NCBI RefSeq assembly: GCF_003334815.1
Contig: NZ_QOWO01000050.1
Origin: Escherichia coli
GTDB taxonomy: Bacteria > Pseudomonadota > Gammaproteobacteria > Enterobacterales > Enterobacteriaceae
Direction: 5' to 3' (one strand)
Length of the DNA stretch: 23,190 bases
Part shown: piece after piece, positions 1-16,616 of the stretch
Position numbering within the stretch: the stretch's first letter is position 1
How the letters are laid out: every line of letters starts with the position of its first letter
Made by a program: the position numbers and the translations under genes
The notes under the pieces: generated by a model
The model's input: the letters and a program-made list of their open reading frames with translations, nothing else
Database searches by the model: none
What the model was told of the DNA's origin: nothing

Positions 1-1
1 G

Positions 2-898
2 TGGCTTGCGCAGTGCGGGCTGACGGTGGAGCAACTGGCCAGACAGGTGGAGCCGGAATACACACCGGCGCGAAAAGCTCATCTTTATCACTGCGACCAC
101 CGGGGACTGCCGCTGGCGCTTATCAGCGAAGACGGCAATACGGCGTGGAGCGCGGAATATGATGAATGGGGCAACCAGCTTAATGAGGAGAACCCGCATC
201 ATGTGTATCAGCCGTACCGTCTGCCAGGGCAGCAGCATGATGAGGAATCAGGGCTGTACTATAACCGTCACCGGTACTACGATCCGTTGCAGGGGCGGTA
301 TATTACTCAGGACCCGATGGGGTTGAAAGGGGGATGGAATTTATATCAGTATCCTTTAAATCCACTACAACAAATTGACCCTATGGGATTATTGCAGACT
401 TGGGATGATGCCAGATCTGGAGCATGTACGGGGGGAGTTTGTGGTGTTCTTTCACGTATAATAGGACCAAGTAAATTTGATAGTACTGCAGATGCTGCGT
501 TAGATGCTTTGAAAGAAACGCAGAATAGATCTCTATGTAATGATATGGAATACTCTGGTATTGTCTGTAAAGATACTAATGGAAAATATTTTGCATCTAA
601 GGCAGAAACTGATAATTTAAGAAAGGAGTCATATCCTCTGAAAAGAAAATGTCCCACAGGTACAGATAGAGTTGCTGCTTATCATACTCACGGTGCAGAT
701 AGTCATGGCGATTATGTTGATGAATTTTTTTCAAGTAGCGATAAAAATCTTGTAAGAAGTAAAGATAATAATCTTGAAGCATTTTATCTCGCAACACCTG
801 ATGGACGATTTGAGGCGCTTAATAATAAAGGAGAATATATTTTTATCAGAAATAGTGTCCCGGGATTGAGTTCAGTATGCATACCGTATCATGATTAA
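2..898 (+). CDS. rhsD: Rhs-family polymorphic toxin, C-terminal ~299 codons (5'-partial; gene begins upstream of window). Conserved Rhs core end followed by a variable AT-rich C-terminal toxin domain
   Basis: Frame is open from position 2 with no stop before the track ORF at 26. Translation contains the Rhs core-terminal signature YDxxGR...[13 protein letters not shown] (PxxxxDPxGL) at about 300-390. Base composition drops sharply to AT-rich immediately after that motif, as expected for a swapped toxin tip. Gene symbol is from recalled context (rhsD-ybbC-ylbH-ybbD next to mnmH/allS). Confidence 0.85.
113..392 (+). repeat. Rhs core-terminal homology block, copy 1 (direct repeat with 1309-1588)
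   Basis: Nucleotide and protein similarity to 1309-1588 visible by eye, including a 33-nt identical block ccggtactacgatccgttgcaggggcggtatat at 271-303 and 1467-1499. Both copies end at the DPxGL motif. Confidence 0.8.
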
Positions 899-937
899 TT
901 TTAGTGCTTTTATTAGTGGGGCCTATAAGGAGATTCA

Positions 938-1306
938 ATGAAATATAGTTCAATATTTTCGATGCTTTCATTTTTTATACTATTTGCCTGTAATGAGACA
1001 GCTGTTTACGGTTCTGATGAAAACATTATTTTTATGAGGTATGTGGAAAAATTACATTTAGATAAATACTCTGTTAAAAATACGGTAAAAACTGAAACAA
1101 TGGCGATACAATTAGCTGAAATATATGTTAGGTATCGCTATGGCGAACGGATTGCAGAAGAAGAAAAACCATATTTAATTACGGAACTACCAGATAGTTG
1201 GGTTGTTGAGGGAGCAAAGTTACCTTATGAAGTTGCGGGTGGTGTATTTATTATAGAAATTAATAAGAAAAATGGATGTGTTTTGAATTTCCTACATAGT
1301 AAATAA
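938..1306 (+). CDS. ybbC: Small protein directly downstream of the Rhs toxin tip; putative cognate Rhs immunity protein with a hydrophobic N-terminus (possible signal peptide or lipoprotein)
   Basis: 122-aa ORF starting 40 nt after the rhs stop, AT-rich like the toxin tip. N-terminus [18 protein letters not shown] is signal-peptide-like with a Cys after the hydrophobic stretch. Position immediately 3' of an Rhs C-terminal tip is the canonical immunity-gene location. Confidence 0.75.
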
Positions 1307-2016
1307 TGCTGGCGCTGATGGATGCGGATGGAAACATTGCGTGGAGCGGGGAGTATGATGAGTGGGGCAACCAGCTGAATGAAGAGAACCCGCATCACCT
1401 GCACCAGCCGTACCGGCTGCCGGGGCAGCAGTATGATAAGGAGTCGGGGCTGTACTACAACCGGAACCGGTACTACGATCCGTTGCAGGGGCGGTATATC
1501 ACTCAGGACCCGATAGGGCTGGAGGGGGGATGGAGTCTGTATGCGTATCCGCTGAATCCGGTGAATGGTATTGATCCATTAGGGTTAAGTCCCGCAGATG
1601 TAGCGCTAATAAGAAGAAAAGATCAACTAAACCATCAAAGAGCATGGGATATATTATCTGATACTTATGAAGATATGAAGAGATTAAATTTAGGTGGGAC
1701 TGATCAATTTTTCCATTGTATGGCATTTTGTCGAGTGTCTAAATTAAATGACGCTGGTGTTAGCCGATCGGCGAAAGGGCTGGGTTATGAAAAAGAGATT
1801 AGAGATTACGGGTTAAATCTGTTCGGTATGTACGGCAGAAAAGTAAAGCTATCCCATTCTGAAATGATTGAAGATAATAAAAAAGACTTGGCTGTAAATG
1901 ACCATGGGTTGACATGTCCATCAACAACAGATTGCTCAGATAGATGTAGTGATTATATTAATCCAGAGCATAAAAAAACGATAAAGGCTTTACAAGATGC
2001 TGGCTATCTCAAGTAA
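1306..2016 (+). CDS. ylbH: Orphan Rhs C-terminal module: ~95 residues of Rhs core end (through DPLGL) fused to a different, AT-rich C-terminal toxin domain of unknown activity
   Basis: 236-aa ORF whose ATG overlaps the ybbC stop (TAATG). N-terminal third is homologous to the end of the upstream rhs core; the sequence after DPLGL (about 1590) is unrelated to the RhsD tip and AT-rich. No upstream Rhs repeat region is in frame, so it is a displaced tip rather than a full rhs gene. Confidence 0.8.
1309..1588 (+). repeat. Rhs core-terminal homology block, copy 2 (5' part of the orphan tip module)
   Basis: Same as copy 1. Encoded peptide [26 protein letters not shown]...[14 protein letters not shown] parallels [26 protein letters not shown]...[14 protein letters not shown] in the main rhs ORF. 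Confidence 0.8.
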
Positions 2017-2257
2017 TCTATCAAAGATGATAATATTTATTTTTGCTATTATAATCATTGTTGTTTTATGCGTAATTACTTATCTTTATTTATACAAAGA
2101 TGAATCTCTTGTAAGTAAACATTACATAAACTATATGGCAATACCAGAAAATGATGGAGTTTTTACATGGCTCCCAGATTTTTTTCCGCACGTAGCGGTG
2201 GATATATCAATATACACAAATGTAGAAGATGATTATTTTTTTCTTATTTTTCCCTAA
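1997..2257 (+). CDS. ybbD: Small predicted membrane protein downstream of the orphan Rhs tip; candidate immunity protein for the orphan toxin (start uncertain; an internal ATG at 2027 just after the ylbH stop is an alternative)
   Basis: 86-aa ORF, very AT-rich, with a strongly hydrophobic N-terminal segment [22 protein letters not shown]. Sits in the immunity-gene position relative to the orphan tip. Weak ribosome-binding sites for both candidate starts. Confidence 0.5.
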
Positions 2258-3000
2258 CAAATGATGATGGGGGTAGGTTTAAGAAAACATTGACAGTGAG
2301 GGCCAGGGAACAAGTGGCGAAAATCGTATCAAAGAATGATCCAGATACAAAAAAAGTGTGGTGTAAATATGGTAAGATACCAGGGCAAGGGGATGGTGTA
2401 AACCTTTTTTTGTTGGTGAAATTAATGTTACGCATTATTTTATAACAAATATTGGAGCTGGATTGCCTGATGCTTGTGCAGAGTAATTGCTTGAATTAAG
2501 AGTCTATCCCATATCGAAGTCGTCAACTTCGTAGTGAGGAAAAGTAAAATTCCTGACTGAGAAAAGACATGTCGGCTATTGTGTAAAGCCATATAGCTCA
2601 GACGATGAATATCTACTCGTATTCAGTTGTTTATTGAGGGTGAGTTCCGACCCTGAAACAACAAATAAAATGAACAGTCAGAGAGTTTACATAGAATTGC
2701 ACTGGTCTTTTACGATATCTGACATTGTGTAATACATATTCAGCCATGCATTAATTAAAATGTTACGTGTTTAATGTGAGTCCCTATCTGAAAATAAATA
2801 ATCCTTCCGGATTAAAATAAATTCTTGCCGGGAAAGAAAGAGGAAATAAACCATTAGCGGAAAACCAGCGGCACGCCAGGGTGACATGCCCCAGTACGGC
2901 GGCCCGATAGTCCAGGGTTCAGCGGGGGTACTGATAGTCGCGCCGACTGCATCGAGAACTCCATACAACTTTTTACGGAACGTCACCTGATAAAATTTGT

Positions 3001-10988: not shown

Positions 10989-12443
10989 ATGGAACATCAG
11001 AGAAAACTATTCCAGCAACGCGGCTATAGCGAAGATCTATTGCCGAAAACGCAAAGCCAGCGGACCTGGAAAACATTTAACTATTTTACCTTATGGATGG
11101 GTTCGGTTCATAACGTTCCCAATTATGTGATGGTCGGCGGCTTTTTTATTCTCGGCTTGTCTACCTTTAGTATTATGCTGGCAATTATCCTCAGCGCCTT
11201 TTTCATTGCCGCGGTAATGGTATTAAACGGTGCTGCGGGCAGTAAATACGGTGTGCCTTTTGCCATGATCCTGCGTGCTTCTTACGGTGTACGTGGTGCA
11301 CTGTTTCCCGGATTATTAAGGGGCGGAATTGCCGCCATCATGTGGTTTGGTTTGCAATGTTACGCGGGGTCACTGGCCTGCTTGATTCTGATTGGCAAAA
11401 TCTGGCCGGGATTTTTAACTCTCGGTGGTGATTTCACTCTGTTAGGCCTTTCTCTACCGGGCTTAATTACTTTCTTAATCTTCTGGCTGGTCAACGTTGG
11501 TATAGGTTTTGGCGGTGGCAAAGTTTTAAATAAATTCACTGCCATTCTTAACCCGTGCATCTATATCGTTTTCGGCGGTATGGCGATTTGGGCGATTTCA
11601 CTGGTCGGGATCGGTCCAATCTTTGACTACATTCCGAGCGGTATTCAGAAAGCAGAAAACGGTGGCTTCCTGTTCCTGGTGGTGATTAACGCGGTAGTTG
11701 CGGTCTGGGCGGCACCGGCGGTGAGCGCATCCGACTTTACGCAAAACGCCCACTCGTTTCGTGAGCAGGCGCTGGGGCAAACGCTGGGTTTAGTTGTGGC
11801 CTATATTCTGTTTGCGGTCGCCGGGGTATGTATTATTGCCGGAGCCAGTATTCACTACGGCGCTGATACCTGGAACGTGCTGGATATTGTTCAGCGTTGG
11901 GACAGCCTGTTCGCCTCGTTCTTTGCGGTACTGGTTATTCTGATGACAACTATCTCCACTAACGCGACCGGTAATATTATTCCAGCCGGTTATCAGATTG
12001 CCGCCATTGCACCGACAAAACTGACCTATAAAAACGGCGTACTGATTGCCAGTATTATCAGCTTGCTGATCTGCCCGTGGAAATTAATGGAAAATCAGGA
12101 CAGCATTTATCTTTTCCTCGATATTATCGGCGGAATGCTTGGTCCGGTAATTGGTGTCATGATGGCGCATTATTTTGTGGTGATGCGCGGACAAATTAAT
12201 CTTGATGAACTGTATACCGCACCTGGCGATTATAAATATTACGATAACGGTTTTAACCTCACTGCGTTTTCAGTAACTCTGGTGGCCGTTATTTTATCTC
12301 TTGGCGGTAAGTTTATTCACTTTATGGAACCGTTATCGCGTGTTTCATGGTTTGTCGGCGTCATCGTCGCCTTTGCGGCCTACGCCTTATTAAAGAAACG
12401 TACAACAGCAGAAAAAACAGGAGAGCAAAAAACCATAGGTTAA
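10989..12443 (+). CDS. ybbW: Allantoin permease, NCS1 family transporter
   Basis: 484-aa highly hydrophobic ORF with multiple predicted transmembrane segments; RBS AAGAGGG; matches YbbW/AllP in length and context. Confidence 0.88.
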   Translation: MEHQRKLFQQRGYSEDLLPKTQSQRTWKTFNYFTLWMGSVHNVPNYVMVGGFFILGLSTFSIMLAIILSAFFIAAVMVLNGAAGSKYGVPFAMILRASYGVRGALFPGLLRGGIAAIMWFGLQCYAGSLACLILIGKIWPGFLTLGGDFTLLGLSLPGLITFLIFWLVNVGIGFGGGKVLNKFTAILNPCIYIVFGGMAIWAISLVGIGPIFDYIPSGIQKAENGGFLFLVVINAVVAVWAAPAVSASDFTQNAHSFREQALGQTLGLVVAYILFAVAGVCIIAGASIHYGADTWNVLDIVQRWDSLFASFFAVLVILMTTISTNATGNIIPAGYQIAAIAPTKLTYKNGVLIASIISLLICPWKLMENQDSIYLFLDIIGGMLGPVIGVMMAHYFVVMRGQINLDELYTAPGDYKYYDNGFNLTAFSVTLVAVILSLGGKFIHFMEPLSRVSWFVGVIVAFAAYALLKKRTTAEKTGEQKTIG

Positions 12444-12502: not shown

Positions 12503-13864
12503 ATGTCTTTTGATTTAATCATTAAAAACGGCACCGTTATTTTAGAAAACGAAGCTCGCGTTGTAGATATCGCCGTTAAAGGCGGAAAAATTGCTGCTAT
12601 CGGTCAGGATCTGGGCGATGCAAAAGAAGTTATGGATGCGTCTGGTCTGGTGGTTTCGCCGGGCATGGTTGATGCGCACACCCATATTTCTGAACCGGGT
12701 CGTAGCCACTGGGAAGGTTATGAAACCGGTACTCGCGCAGCGGCAAAAGGTGGTATCACCACCATGATCGAAATGCCGCTCAACCAGCTGCCTGCAACGG
12801 TTGACCGCGCTTCAATTGAACTGAAGTTCGATGCCGCTAAAGGCAAGCTGACTATTGATGCGGCACAACTCGGTGGCCTGGTGTCTTACAACATCGACCG
12901 TCTGCATGAGCTGGATGAAGTGGGCGTTGTCGGCTTCAAATGCTTCGTTGCGACCTGTGGCGATCGCGGTATCGACAACGACTTCCGTGATGTAAACGAC
13001 TGGCAGTTCTTCAAAGGTGCGCAGAAGCTGGGCGAACTGGGTCAGCCGGTGCTGGTGCACTGCGAAAACGCGCTGATTTGTGACGAACTGGGCGAAGAAG
13101 CGAAGCGTGAAGGTCGCGTAACCGCTCATGACTATGTGGCTTCGCGTCCGGTATTTACCGAAGTGGAAGCAATTCGCCGCGTACTGTATCTGGCGAAAGT
13201 TGCTGGTTGCCGTCTGCACGTTTGCCACGTCAGCAGCCCGGAAGGTGTTGAGGAAGTGACTCGTGCACGTCAGGAAGGTCAGGACGTTACTTGTGAATCC
13301 TGCCCGCATTACTTTGTACTGGATACCGATCAGTTCGAAGAAATCGGTACTCTGGCGAAGTGTTCACCGCCGATCCGCGATCTGGAAAACCAGAAAGGCA
13401 TGTGGGAAAAACTGTTTAACGGTGAAATCGACTGCCTGGTTTCCGACCACTCTCCATGCCCGCCGGAAATGAAAGCCGGTAACATCATGAAAGCATGGGG
13501 CGGTATCGCCGGTCTGCAAAGCTGCATGGACGTGATGTTCGATGAAGCGGTACAGAAACGCGGTATGTCTCTGCCAATGTTCGGCAAATTAATGGCGACT
13601 AACGCAGCAGATATTTTCGGTCTGCAGCAAAAAGGCCGTATCGCCCCAGGAAAAGATGCCGACTTCGTCTTCATTCAGCCGAATAGCAGCTATGTTCTTA
13701 CCAATGACGATCTGGAATATCGCCACAAAGTCAGCCCGTATGTTGGCCGTACCATTGGCGCGCGTATCACGAAAACCATCTTACGTGGTGATGTGATTTA
13801 CGACATTGAACAGGGCTTCCCTGTTGCGCCGAAAGGTCAATTTATCCTTAAACATCAGCAGTAA
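12503..13864 (+). CDS. allB: Allantoinase (cyclic amidohydrolase)
   Basis: 453-aa ORF with the amidohydrolase metal-binding motif DAHTH near the N-terminus; RBS AAGGAG. Confidence 0.92.
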
Positions 13865-13920
13865 TCTGGCCCCTGCAATGCCCGTCCTTGCGGCGGGCAT
13901 TCTCCGGTTAAGGTGTGTTT

Positions 13921-15222
13921 ATGTTCAATTTTGCAGTCAGCCGCGAAAGCCTGTTATCAGGATTTCAGTGGTTTTTCTTTATTTTTTGCAACACGGTTGT
14001 GGTTCCTCCTACGCTACTTTCTGCTTTTCAGTTGCCGCAAAGTAGCCTGCTTACGCTCACGCAATATGCTTTTCTTGCTACCGCACTGGCCTGCTTCGCT
14101 CAGGCGTTTTGCGGTCATCGTCGCGCTATTATGGAAGGGCCAGGTGGCCTGTGGTGGGGAACCATCCTTACTATCACCCTTGGTGAAGCATCGCGCGGGA
14201 CACCGATCAACGATATCGCCACCAGCCTGGCAGTGGGGATTGCACTCTCCGGCGTGCTGACGATGTTGATTGGTTTTAGCGGATTAGGCCATCGCCTGGC
14301 ACGGTTATTTACGCCGTCGGTGATGGTCTTGTTTATGTTGATGCTGGGCGCGCAGCTGACCACTATCTTTTTCAAAGGTATGCTCGGGCTGCCGTTTGGC
14401 ATAGCCGACCCGAATTTTAAAATTCAGTTACCGCCGTTCGCGCTCTCGGTGGCGGTGATGTGCCTGGTACTGGCGATGATTATCTTCCTGCCGCAACGTT
14501 TTGCCCGTTATGGCCTGCTGGTCGGCACCATAACCGGCTGGTTGTTGTGGTACTTTTGCTTTCCTTCTTCGCACTCGCTCTCCGGTGAGTTGCACTGGCA
14601 GTGGTTCCCGCTCGGCAGTGGCGGTGCTTTGTCGCCGGGAATTATTCTGACGGCGGTGATTACAGGTCTGGTAAATATCAGCAATACCTACGGTGCGATT
14701 CGGGGCACGGATGTTTTTTATCCGCAGCAGGGCGCAGGGAATACGCGTTATCGTCGTAGCTTTGTGGCGACCGGATTTATGACGCTGATAACCGTACCGC
14801 TGGCGGTAATTCCATTTTCACCGTTTGTTTCATCCATTGGTTTATTAACCCAGACTGGCGATTACACGCGGCGTTCGTTTATTTATGGCAGCGTTATTTG
14901 CCTGCTGGTGGCGCTGGTTCCTGCACTCACGCGACTGTTTTGCAGTATCCCTTTACCCGTGAGTAGTGCGGTCATGCTGGTTTCTTATCTGCCTTTACTC
15001 TTTTCCGCGCTGGTGTTTAGCCAGCAAATAACGTTTACCGCTCGCAATATTTATCGACTCGCATTGCCGTTATTTGTCGGCATATTTTTAATGGCATTAC
15101 CGCCTGTGTATCTGCAAGACCTTCCATTAACGCTTCGTCCTCTGCTCAGTAACGGCTTATTGGTCGGGATTTTACTGGCTGTTCTTATGGATAACCTTAT
15201 TCCGTGGGAACGCATCGAATAA
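13921..15222 (+). CDS. ybbY: Predicted nucleobase/purine-type permease of unknown substrate
   Basis: Track ORF starts at GTG 13915, but the ATG at 13921 (MFNFAVSRESLL...) with upstream AAGGTG gives 433 aa. Polytopic membrane protein by hydrophobicity. Confidence 0.85.
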   Translation: MFNFAVSRESLLSGFQWFFFIFCNTVVVPPTLLSAFQLPQSSLLTLTQYAFLATALACFAQAFCGHRRAIMEGPGGLWWGTILTITLGEASRGTPINDIATSLAVGIALSGVLTMLIGFSGLGHRLARLFTPSVMVLFMLMLGAQLTTIFFKGMLGLPFGIADPNFKIQLPPFALSVAVMCLVLAMIIFLPQRFARYGLLVGTITGWLLWYFCFPSSHSLSGELHWQWFPLGSGGALSPGIILTAVITGLVNISNTYGAIRGTDVFYPQQGAGNTRYRRSFVATGFMTLITVPLAVIPFSPFVSSIGLLTQTGDYTRRSFIYGSVICLLVALVPALTRLFCSIPLPVSSAVMLVSYLPLLFSALVFSQQITFTARNIYRLALPLFVGIFLMALPPVYLQDLPLTLRPLLSNGLLVGILLAVLMDNLIPWERIE

Positions 15223-15243: not shown

Positions 15244-16389
15244 ATGAAGATTGTCATTGCGCCAGACTCTTTTAAAGAGAGCTTAAGTGCAGAAAAATGT
15301 TGTCAGGCAATTAAAGCCGGGTTTTCGACCCTCTTTCCCGATGCGAACTATATCTGTTTGCCGATAGCGGATGGCGGCGAAGGGACGGTGGATGCGATGG
15401 TCGCCGCGACGGGCGGCAACATCGTGACGCTTGAAGTCTGCGGGCCGATGGGCGAAAAAGTGAATGCTTTTTATGGCCTTACCGGCGACGGGAAAACGGC
15501 GGTGATTGAGATGGCGGCAGCAAGTGGCCTGATGCTGGTCGCGCCTGAAAAGCGTAATCCGTTGCTGGCCTCCAGTTTTGGTACGGGGGAGTTAATTCGT
15601 CATGCGCTGGATAACGACATTCGCCATATTATTCTCGGCATTGGCGGCAGTGCGACGGTCGACGGCGGTATGGGCATGGCGCAGGCGCTCGGTGTGCGTT
15701 TCCTTGATGCCGACGGTCAGGCGCTGGCGGCAAACGGTGGTAATTTAGCGCGCGTGGCAAGCATTGAGATGGATGAATGCGATCCGCGTCTGGCGAATTG
15801 CCATATTGAAGTAGCATGTGACGTTGATAACCCGCTGGTAGGGGCACGCGGCGCGGCGGCGGTGTTTGGCCCGCAAAAAGGGGCAACGCCGGAGATGGTC
15901 GAAGAACTTGAACAGGGGCTGCAAAATTACGCCCGTGTTTTACAACAGCAAACTGAAATTAATGTCTGCCAGATGGCGGGCGGCGGCGCTGCGGGCGGTA
16001 TGGGTATTGCGGCGGCGGTATTTCTCAATGCGGATATTAAACCGGGCATTGAAATTGTGTTGAATGCGGTCAATCTTGCGCAGGCAGTGCAGGGCGCAGC
16101 ACTGGTGATTACCGGGGAAGGGCGCATCGACTCGCAAACGGCAGGCGGTAAAGCGCCGCTGGGTGTGGCGTCGGTGGCGAAGCAGTTTAATGTACCGGTG
16201 ATTGGGATTGCTGGCGTATTGGGTGATGGCGTGGAAGTGGTGCACCAGTACGGCATTGACGCGGTATTCAGCATTTTGCCTCGTCTGGCACCTTTAGCCG
16301 AAGTGCTCGCCAGCGGTGAAACCAATCTCTTCAACAGCGCGCGAAATATTGCCTGCGCCATTAAAATAGGTCAGGGAATTAAAAACTAA
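15244..16389 (+). CDS. glxK: Glycerate 2-kinase
   Basis: Track ORF starts at TTG 15238; the ATG at 15244 ([14 protein letters not shown]...) with RBS AAGGA gives 381 aa; matches the glycerate kinase family. Confidence 0.9.
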
Positions 16390-16407: not shown

Positions 16408-16539
16408 ATGCGATTTATATCGCATAAGAGTGCAGTACTCATGCCGGATGCGGCATGAGTACCATATCCTTCCTGAAAATCGCGCAAATTCTATATATTG
16501 CAGAGATCATGTAGGCCTGATAAGCGAAGCGCATCAGGC
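16408..16539. repeat. Cluster of REP/BIME-like palindromic units in the glxK-allE convergent intergenic region
   Basis: Three palindromes by eye: ATGCGAT-TTAT-ATCGCAT (about 16408-16425); a perfect 12-bp stem GTACTCATGCCG-GATG-CGGCATGAGTAC (about 16435-16462) containing the REP-like core GCCGGATGCGGC; and GTAGGCCTGATAAGCGAAGCGCATCAGGC (16511-16539), a classical REP consensus in reverse orientation. Confidence 0.6.
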
Positions 16540-16547
16540 AATGTTAC

Positions 16548-16574
16548 AAAAAAAGCCACGGTATAAACCGTGGC
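16548..16574 (-). terminator. Rho-independent terminator for the allE-allC-allD transcript (minus strand)
   Basis: On the minus strand, hairpin GCCACGG-TTTATA-CCGTGGC is followed by seven T (plus strand shows AAAAAAA then the stem). It lies ~45 nt downstream of the allE stop. Confidence 0.6.
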
Positions 16575-16616
16575 AAAATCCAACATAGCTAAAAATAATC
16601 AGGCGAGTGGTATGAC

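Follow-up and report, generated by a model that had tools for sequence, protein, structure and literature searches.

The closest described systems to YbbY, a permease encoded in the allantoin cluster of Escherichia coli, are the carriers of the NAT/NCS2 superfamily. The uracil:H+ symporter UraA of E. coli (PDB 3QE7, 5XLS and 8OMZ) shares with it a Pfam family, a 14-helix fold and the strand and half-helix found in transmembrane helices (TM) 3 and 10, at about 19% identity and with G307 and T312 of the signature region (YbbY numbering) in common; uraA, however, adjoins upp, a salvage gene, whereas ybbY lies in a catabolic cluster. XanQ, UacT and the PbuX-type carriers of NAT cluster 1 resemble YbbY in family and fold and, like it, are linked at the operon level to purine breakdown, and UacT is its closest E. 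coli paralogue by tblastn (about 21-25% identity), but E272 and Q324-N325 of XanQ are missing from YbbY. The best structural matches, SVCT1 (SLC23A1) and UapA (Foldseek E 5e-14 to 9e-12, TM-score 0.77-0.80), differ from it in being eukaryotic, in their substrates and in a sequence identity of 15-20%; SVCT1, which is Na+-coupled, carries a non-nucleobase organic anion, ascorbate, on the same fold. The ybbY gene analysed here lies in a 23,190-nucleotide stretch of E. coli DNA (contig NZ_QOWO01000050.1, assembly GCF_003334815.1; hereafter the window), where it runs on the plus strand from the ATG at 13921 to the TAA at 15222 (433 amino acids plus stop), coordinates identical to those of the RefSeq coding sequence ybbY. 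The gene, its family and its operon were known before; the departure of YbbY from the nucleobase-binding signature is demonstrated here and goes beyond the existing annotation, and the company that the gene keeps in other bacteria suggests, tentatively, that its cargo may be oxamate.

Membership of the NAT/NCS2 superfamily (PF00860; TC 2.A.40) is secure. PF00860 (Xan_ur_permease) aligns with residues 9-395 of YbbY over model positions 2-388 of 389 (E 3.4e-100), and with NF037981 (NCS2_1) it reaches 187 bits, the cutoff being 40. The equivalog model NF008502 (PRK11412, 'uracil/xanthine transporter') scores 818 bits against a cutoff of 370 and amounts to a model of the YbbY orthologues; the searchable literature offered no published support for its name. 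YbbY falls under the curated cutoffs for TIGR03173 (xanthine, 96.5 versus 414), TIGR00801 (ncs2, 56.6 versus 292) and NF007995 (uracil, 18.4 versus 477). A sequence search of the PDB with YbbY returned UraA only, at E 0.28. An AlphaFold2 model built on 29 clade sequences was obtained with a predicted local distance difference test score (pLDDT) of 88.6 and a predicted template-modelling score (pTM) of 0.87; in Foldseek searches of the PDB it placed SVCT1, UapA and UraA on top (E 5e-14 to 1e-10, TM-score 0.7-0.8), with SLC26, SLC4 and BicA anion carriers as a second tier. The model has strands at residues 72-74 (TM3) and 299-301 (TM10), followed by half-helices at 77-90 and 305-312 respectively, and on this evidence YbbY is a 14-helix secondary transporter of the NAT/NCS2 (UraA/UapA) fold with a 7+7 inverted repeat. 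Membership of SLC26/SulP was considered and rejected, as no Sulfate_transp or STAS domain is present and the fold-level likeness ranks below that to NAT structures; a Pfam scan gave in addition a weak partial match to MFS_MOT1 (E 0.0012). A preliminary description of the window had called YbbY a polytopic membrane protein and proposed that a profile search be used to assign its family: the end-to-end PF00860 match and the confident model bear out the first, and the outcome of the second is NCS2/NAT.

The substrate-binding elements were compared in an alignment of YbbY with UraA, XanQ and UacT and in a second one of 90 sequences, comprising 87 clade members and those three references. In TM3, alignments and model place the beta-strand and the start of the half-helix at residues 65-79 (GHRRAIMEGPGGLWW; window positions 14113-14157, plus strand). 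Within this segment H66, G73, G76 and W78 are invariant in the clade and E72 is nearly so, and the invariant G76 stands where the characterised carriers have their base-stacking aromatic residue (F73 in UraA, F94 in XanQ). In the aligned segment of TM8 (residues 252-259, NISNTYGA; 14674-14697, plus strand), the essential glutamate of UraA (E241) and XanQ (E272), present also in UacT, is N255 in YbbY and asparagine in 85 of the 87 clade sequences, while the position of UraA H245 and XanQ D276 is taken by A259. The strand and half-helix of TM10 (residues 298-313, PFSPFVSSIGLLTQTG; 14812-14859, plus strand, from alignments and model) occupy the position of the NAT signature motif, which we take to be [Q/E/P]-N-x-G-x-x-x-x-T-[R/K/G]. 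Here YbbY reads S304-S305-I-G-L-L-T-Q-T-G and departs from the motif at its two substrate-contact positions: E290-N291 of UraA and Q324-N325 of XanQ are replaced by S304-S305, of which S305 is nearly invariant in the clade, and G307, T312 and G313 are kept. Taken together, the replacements at G76, N255, A259 and S304-S305 hardly vary among the 87 clade members. The clade has conserved residues of its own, namely H66, E72, G73, W78 and N252. Judged by these alignments, the base- and proton-binding positions of characterised members are all changed in YbbY, and the names 'uracil/xanthine transporter' and 'purine permease' find no support in binding-site conservation.

The YbbY clade is small and distinct. 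Among 1.84 billion representative proteins 481 relatives were found at E <= 0.001, and NAT/NCS2-hound assigns YbbY to a separate cluster 3. A homologue search recovered orthologues throughout Enterobacterales that equal YbbY in length and are 50-80% identical to it, and length and motifs are kept down to 33% identity, across phyla. Gene neighbourhoods were compared at 80 loci, drawn from contigs of one genome per species, and at further loci surrounding particular homologues; tblastn scoring used the proteins of the window together with marker proteins from the loci themselves. In Enterobacterales ybbY lies inside the allantoin (ALL) cluster from Escherichia to Serratia, Rahnella, Budvicia and Providencia (50-98% identity), and the order allW-allB-ybbY is kept in Providencia despite the placing of glxK and gcl-hyi-glxR on the other strand. 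Providencia alcalifaciens has two YbbY-clade copies in one genome (L029 and L038). In Serratia aquatilis a gene for OHCU decarboxylase, of the urate oxidation pathway, replaces glxK directly downstream of ybbY (L004:11637-12221). Two loci assigned to other groups, a 'Sporobacter termitidis' metagenome-assembled genome (L016) and 'Chryseobacterium sp. 18061' (L039), contain Klebsiella- or Citrobacter-like ALL clusters with 70-93% protein identity to E. coli, which points to mis-binning or contamination of the assemblies and not to a real transfer.

The nearest relatives outside Enterobacterales are in Bacillales, at 40-48% identity and 45 loci. At 21 of these the gene stands with genes of the oxamate branch (allD, allE, allF, allG, allH, allK), usually together with allW, allB and allC. 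Five others have the context PucR / PucF allantoate deiminase / PucG-like aminotransferase / permease / amidase / FAH-family protein / allantoinase; oxalurate is the product of PucG. At a further seven loci the permease heads a compact same-strand unit in which it is followed by a GGT-family protein and a bicupin (OxdC), and one short contig carries the GGT-like gene. The remaining 11 loci have no related neighbours, and in those that are annotated the unrelated genes include those for LtaS, a methyl-accepting chemotaxis protein (MCP), sigma-54, ATP-binding cassette (ABC) exporters and proline dehydrogenase. No guanine deaminase, xanthine dehydrogenase, phosphoribosyltransferase or nucleoside hydrolase gene was found within 10 kb at any of the 45 loci. 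In 13 of them the same-strand gene directly upstream of the permease encodes a Pfam AllH domain ('oxamate carbamoyltransferase subunit', E 6e-25), as at L042:8985-9929 and its equivalents in L040, L043, L048, L050, L053, L055, L064, L065, L074 and L081-L083. The AllH match in this protein of about 314 amino acids is confined to the C-terminal 110 residues, the N-terminal 200 giving no Pfam or NCBIfam match, and its gene is separate from the allF-allG of the same clusters; it may be an AllH paralogue with a role of its own. In the PucF/PucG clusters of Bacillus swezeyi, Priestia abyssalis and relatives (L051, L047, L049, L058, L071), the YbbY homologue is followed by a conserved amidase (NF006169, 512 bits) and an FAH-family hydrolase, and these two enzymes are candidates for the steps after oxalurate in bacilli lacking allFGH.

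The permeases linked to GGT-family and bicupin genes form a subclade nested, in a neighbour-joining tree, among the permeases of Bacillales allantoin clusters, and a clade member of 33% identity on a metagenome contig is likewise accompanied by a GGT-family gene, a bicupin gene and a PucR regulator. Relatives at 27-36% identity (P0129, P0130, P0136, P0138, P0145, P0150 and P0157) lie on short contigs or among unrelated neighbours. The cluster members of ten distant relatives, all from Firmicutes, have generic names, and there is no Sinorhizobium sequence among them to link to the published rhizobial purine carriers. Taken over two bacterial phyla, YbbY-clade genes are embedded in allantoin, oxalurate and oxamate clusters, and it is the oxalurate/oxamate end of the pathway that unites the informative contexts, rather than purines or allantoin as such.

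In the compact Bacillales unit the bicupin is shown to be OxdC by its match to the oxalate decarboxylase OxdC of B. subtilis (E 1e-163). For the GGT-like protein the best structure is PDB 5HFT, whose two chains gave 172 and 170 bits with the Sporosarcina protein and 169 and 161 bits with that of Staphylococcus; the sums, 342 and 330 bits, compare with 279 and 260 for the next structure. The 5HFT structure is that of HpxW, the Klebsiella oxamate amidohydrolase, an enzyme that yields oxalate and ammonium from oxamate. In its annotation the Sporosarcina protein is called YwrD, and YwrD has been described as very similar to HpxW and as co-evolving with purine catabolism; relatives of the GGT-like protein at about 52% identity bear the name 'oxamate amidohydrolase' in JGI and NCBI. 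The pair looks like a module for converting oxamate to oxalate and thence to formate and CO2. A similar set occurs in Arthrobacter rhombi (L101 and L102), where a GntR regulator gene, an HpxW-like GGT-family gene and an OxdC-like bicupin gene lie together, flanked by resolvase genes and with a gene of the formate/nitrite-transporter family about 2 kb upstream on the opposite strand; this set looks like a mobile oxamate/oxalate-to-formate module. Conserved linkage of the YbbY clade to oxamate-making or oxamate-consuming enzymes is found with allD/allFGHK, with the AllH-domain neighbour, and with the HpxW-like protein and OxdC.

In E. coli, allFGH (fdrA, ylbE and ylbF) encode the oxamic transcarbamylase (PMC11326118). 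During anaerobic growth 11.1 mM allantoin gave rise to 7.3 mM oxamate, and up to 21.7 mM was reached in a complemented allS mutant (PMC12535856); the methods published by the same group in 2024 describe high-performance liquid chromatography of culture supernatants (PMC11326118). Release of oxamate by E. coli in this state is thus large, in the millimolar range. Oxamate has repeatedly been termed a dead-end product. Neither ybbY nor an oxamate exporter is mentioned in these two papers on the oxamate branch, and the searchable literature yielded no bacterial oxamate transporter, exporter or permease. Nor did it yield a published substrate for YbbY, in keeping with the preliminary description of the protein as uncharacterised.

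The cargo that is tentatively favoured for YbbY is oxamate (H2N-CO-COO-), as the dead-end product of the anaerobic oxamate branch, since this is the sole cargo that explains together the oxamate-making neighbours, the oxamate-degrading operons and the lost nucleobase contacts. In this branch allantoin passes by way of allantoate, ureidoglycine and ureidoglycolate to oxalurate (through AllD), which AllFGH split to give oxamate plus carbamoyl phosphate, this last yielding ATP, NH3 and CO2 through AllK. The oxamate anion may be held where the half-helices of TM3 and TM10 bring their N-termini together, in a pocket that would be lined by G75-G76, S304-S305, N252 and N255 and for which E72 or H66 might serve as the proton site; this description draws on the UraA/XanQ alignment and on predicted secondary structure. 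The proposed geometry is the same as that of small-anion binding in SLC26/SulP carriers (SLC26Dg, SLC26A3/A6 and BicA), which have a 7+7 architecture like that of YbbY and hold small anions at the corresponding N-termini; the related SLC4 carriers, too, hold small anions at the TM3/TM10 half-helix ends. Transport would be reversible and probably H+-coupled. As E. coli is without an oxamate amidohydrolase, the oxamate gradient would be directed outward and YbbY would act as an exporter, an efflux that would let the fermentation of allantoin go on. In Sporosarcina, Staphylococcus nepalensis and Paenibacillus, where the permease heads the HpxW-like/OxdC operon, it would instead import oxamate, to be converted to oxalate and NH3 and then to formate and CO2.

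ArcD (arginine/ornithine) and OxlT (oxalate/formate) are obligatory precursor/product exchangers. They offer a functional analogy only, in that a dedicated carrier removes a non-metabolisable product and so keeps running a pathway that yields either ATP, through carbamate kinase, or a membrane gradient; both belong to other protein families, and in the case considered here import (by AllW) and the proposed export (by YbbY) would fall to separate proteins. The preliminary description had listed import of another ureide or purine and export of an intermediate as alternatives, and had held that sequence could not decide between them. The list of options stands, but the second statement does not, as the binding site and some 90 related loci narrow the options considerably. 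We infer that its export alternative is the one to be favoured, and that oxamate, which is not an intermediate but the end product, is the likeliest cargo. That YbbY is a reversible oxamate transporter, working as an exporter in E. coli, is accordingly put forward here as a possibility worth pursuing and not as a settled assignment; equally tentative is the suggestion that the YbbY clade may be the first dedicated oxamate transporter, a NAT branch adapted to a two-carbon amide acid. What YbbY carries, in which direction and with which coupling ion, and how its pocket is shaped, are all deductions of this kind.

Several considerations weigh against an oxamate carrier. To our knowledge, characterised NAT members all import nucleobases or ascorbate; net export would be without precedent in the family. 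The GGT-like enzyme is linked to oxamate by similarity alone, and in Arthrobacter the HpxW-like/OxdC pair occurs without a YbbY-like permease. The clade gene of Kluyvera (L010) lies outside the ALL cluster, beside genes for a LysR regulator, a PepT-like M20 peptidase and an MFS transporter; a second Providencia paralogue (L025 and L029) likewise adjoins a PepT-like peptidase gene; and in Morganella (L031-L036) the clade gene is divergent from ghrB, which encodes a glyoxylate/hydroxypyruvate reductase. These three contexts are unexplained by the oxamate idea. A relative of 38% identity is found beside a convergent gene for an inosine-uridine nucleoside hydrolase. In E. coli itself ybbY belongs to the AllR-controlled gcl operon (the glycerate branch and uptake) and not to the AllS/ArcA-controlled allD and allF operons that make oxamate. 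The gene is annotated in MG1655 (b0513) as a 'putative purine transporter', and it was stated in 2018 that 'recent evidence suggests' that YbbY carries adenine, guanine and hypoxanthine, with reference to unpublished work of the Frillingos laboratory, the group behind the characterisation of the other NAT members of E. coli (PMC6308229).

Among the alternatives, the one that survives best is that YbbY carries some other small compound, either allantoate, ureidoglycolate or oxalurate (by import, or recapture after leakage), or glyoxylate or oxalate, or that it has a broader specificity for C2 oxo-acids. Linkage to the allantoin cluster would fit any intermediate of the pathway, these compounds are close structural analogues of oxamate, and oxalate stands between the two enzymes of the HpxW-like/OxdC unit; the gcl operon of E. 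coli is glyoxylate-induced and encodes glyoxylate assimilation, which together with the ghrB neighbour in Morganella would suit glyoxylate. For an oxalate importer, however, the amidohydrolase that always accompanies the permease would be needless, and E. coli makes no oxalate in the allantoin pathway; allantoate, ureidoglycolate and oxalurate could not be processed by the HpxW-like enzyme and OxdC alone; and the documented need for an exit route covers only oxamate and urea. Such a cargo is rather unlikely, although it deserves to be kept in view alongside oxamate.

It is also unlikely, though still to be reckoned with, that YbbY is an importer of adenine, guanine and hypoxanthine that serves upper purine catabolism or salvage. 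The unpublished Frillingos result comes from an expert group, YbbY is an undoubted member of PF00860 and bears the MG1655 name, allantoin derives from purine breakdown, which provides a thematic link, and the nucleoside hydrolase beside the 38%-identical relative points the same way, though its gene is convergent. On the other side, the TM3 aromatic residue, the TM8 glutamate and the TM10 Gln/Glu-Asn pair of UraA, XanQ and UacT are all replaced, and some 90 clade loci are without guanine deaminase, xanthine dehydrogenase or phosphoribosyltransferase, a nucleoside hydrolase being found near that single relative only. A purine cargo would leave both the permease/HpxW-like/OxdC unit and the AllH-domain adjacency unexplained. 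Deletion of ybbW-allB-ybbY left sensitivity to toxic purine analogues unchanged (2013, PMC3809563), four dedicated adenine, guanine and hypoxanthine permeases are already present in E. coli, and the claim is still unpublished in the searchable literature.

The proposal that YbbY is a second, redundant or low-affinity importer of allantoin, for which its place in one operon with allW and allB might speak, is very unlikely. Deletion of allW alone abolishes allantoin uptake in a strain that retains ybbY, in a 2023 study that termed YbbY 'a hypothetical transporter' (PMC10163214), and this argues that YbbY is not a redundant allantoin importer. The preliminary description had counted ybbY as a second permease besides the NCS1 carrier ybbW and had taken two transporters in one operon to imply a second substrate. 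Both points hold: AllW is NCS1 (NF047713; PMC10163214) and YbbY is NCS2/NAT, different families. AllW and PucI (NCS1, LeuT-type fold) share with YbbY its operon and pathway and are co-inherited with it in Enterobacterales and many Bacillales, but belong to an unrelated family, and AllW is needed for allantoin uptake and suffices for it. The two orders have retained both permeases as a pair, and some Bacillales clusters add a second NCS1 gene to the first and the YbbY homologue, which speaks against simple redundancy.

That ybbY is a decaying or functionless passenger, as the insertion sequences (IS1, IS903B or IS10-type) in or beside it in several E. coli strains and the want of a published phenotype for allantoin use might suggest, is highly improbable, since a 1.9-kb query centred on the gene finds matches of 95-100% identity in 5351 of 5426 complete E. 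coli genomes (5330 of them over at least 80% of the query), its length and motifs are conserved across phyla as described above, and its deletion mutant was, in one transporter-deletion screen, one of three E. coli strains that grew more slowly in plain control medium, with maximal growth rate down by up to about 25% across the set (PMC11025615). Slow growth in control medium is unexpected for a gene concerned with allantoin only, and a polar effect on glxK is possible. Where an IS1, IS903B or ISVsa5 (IS10-type) element splits the gene, as in NZ_CP045457.1 (ET12567) and NZ_CP038453.1, the halves are annotated as two fragments, a 'uracil/xanthine transporter' and a 'solute carrier family 23 protein'; one of these strains is a K-12 derivative used in the laboratory. 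Some E. coli assemblies contain predicted AllB-YbbY fusions of 436-758 amino acids with amidohydrolase and Xan_ur_permease domains (P0009, P0060-P0063 and P0066); these are probably deletions or frameshifts that join the adjacent genes.

In the window, whose coordinates equal the locus coordinates of the RefSeq comparison plus 1599, the order of genes is gcl, hyi, glxR, allW, allB, ybbY and glxK, all on the plus strand. The first permease gene of the operon, allW (ybbW), for the NCS1 allantoin importer, lies at 10989-12443 (NF047713, 898 bits against a cutoff of 800; PMC10163214), and is followed by the allantoinase gene allB at 12503-13864, placed by annotation and neighbourhood comparison. 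The last gene, glxK (glycerate kinase, from annotation), is at 15244-16389 and starts 21 nucleotides past ybbY; the spacer between allB and ybbY is 56 nucleotides. The location of the permease gene between allB and glxK, as first described, agrees with the RefSeq coordinates and flanking genes. Beyond glxK, between 16617 and 22972, lie genes of the oxamate branch, from which the proposed cargo would come: allE, allC and allD on the minus strand, and allF/fdrA and allG/ylbE on the plus strand. Before the ybbY start codon the sequence AAGGTG (13910-13915, plus strand) resembles a Shine-Dalgarno element, its AAGG core standing about 6 nucleotides 5' of the ATG; an in-frame GTG at 13915 was considered as an alternative start and is unlikely.

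A consensus scan from allB to glxK gave no promoter- or terminator-like site above the shuffled background, and an internal promoter or terminator that would split ybbY from allB or glxK was rejected on this ground. The spacers agree in this respect with the single published operon gcl-hyi-glxR-allW-allB-ybbY-glxK, in which ybbY is co-transcribed with allW and allB; an interaction between YbbY and GlxK has been reported from an interactome screen (PMC10163214). The allB-ybbY spacer contains a GC-rich hairpin with 10-bp arms (AAUGCCCGUC and GGCGGGCAUU; 13877-13901, plus strand) and no U-tract. It is not a canonical terminator but could be an element of mRNA processing or stability; the fold of 13855-13930 (-23.2 kcal/mol, z -1.46) is not significant against shuffles, and with no Rfam match in addition a regulatory RNA in this spacer was rejected.

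Two small RNA (sRNA) families of Rfam reach their gathering scores in the glxK-allE spacer, ES036/CssrF at 16476-16518 (plus strand, 38.1 bits) and STnc480 at 16544-16610 (plus strand, 87.6 bits). The STnc480 match overlaps a strong hairpin and T-run at 16555-16574 that looks like the terminator of allDCE, so that the 'sRNA' may be a 3' fragment that derives from this terminator. At the other end of the window, positions 1-3000 have a G+C content of 0.36-0.43, against about 0.5 elsewhere, and a strong positive GC skew. This region lies upstream of mnmH/selU and contains RHS-repeat remnants, small hypothetical open reading frames and a ylbG pseudogene; it is probably horizontally acquired debris.

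Of the 17 genes in the E. coli allantoin cluster, ybbY alone was left without a role once those of allW (2023) and allFGH (2024) had been settled. If the purine claim is right, YbbY would be an ordinary paralogue with an unusual binding site. If YbbY is instead a carrier of oxamate, E. coli allantoin fermentation would gain its missing last step, oxamate efflux; a dead-end metabolite would be removed from metabolic models and the pathway closed; and the Bacillales permease would provide the entry step of a previously undescribed route in which oxamate serves as a nitrogen source. The names 'uracil/xanthine transporter' and 'purine permease', which have spread over thousands of genomes, would be corrected. 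There is also a medical angle, in that the allantoin cluster marks hypervirulent Klebsiella and oxamate inhibits lactate dehydrogenase. What is new beyond the annotation is the departure from the binding signature, together with a testable oxamate proposal for a pathway whose enzymes were completed in 2024; and, if that proposal holds, it would mean that the specificity of the NAT fold can shift away from nucleobases towards a small oxo-acid amide.

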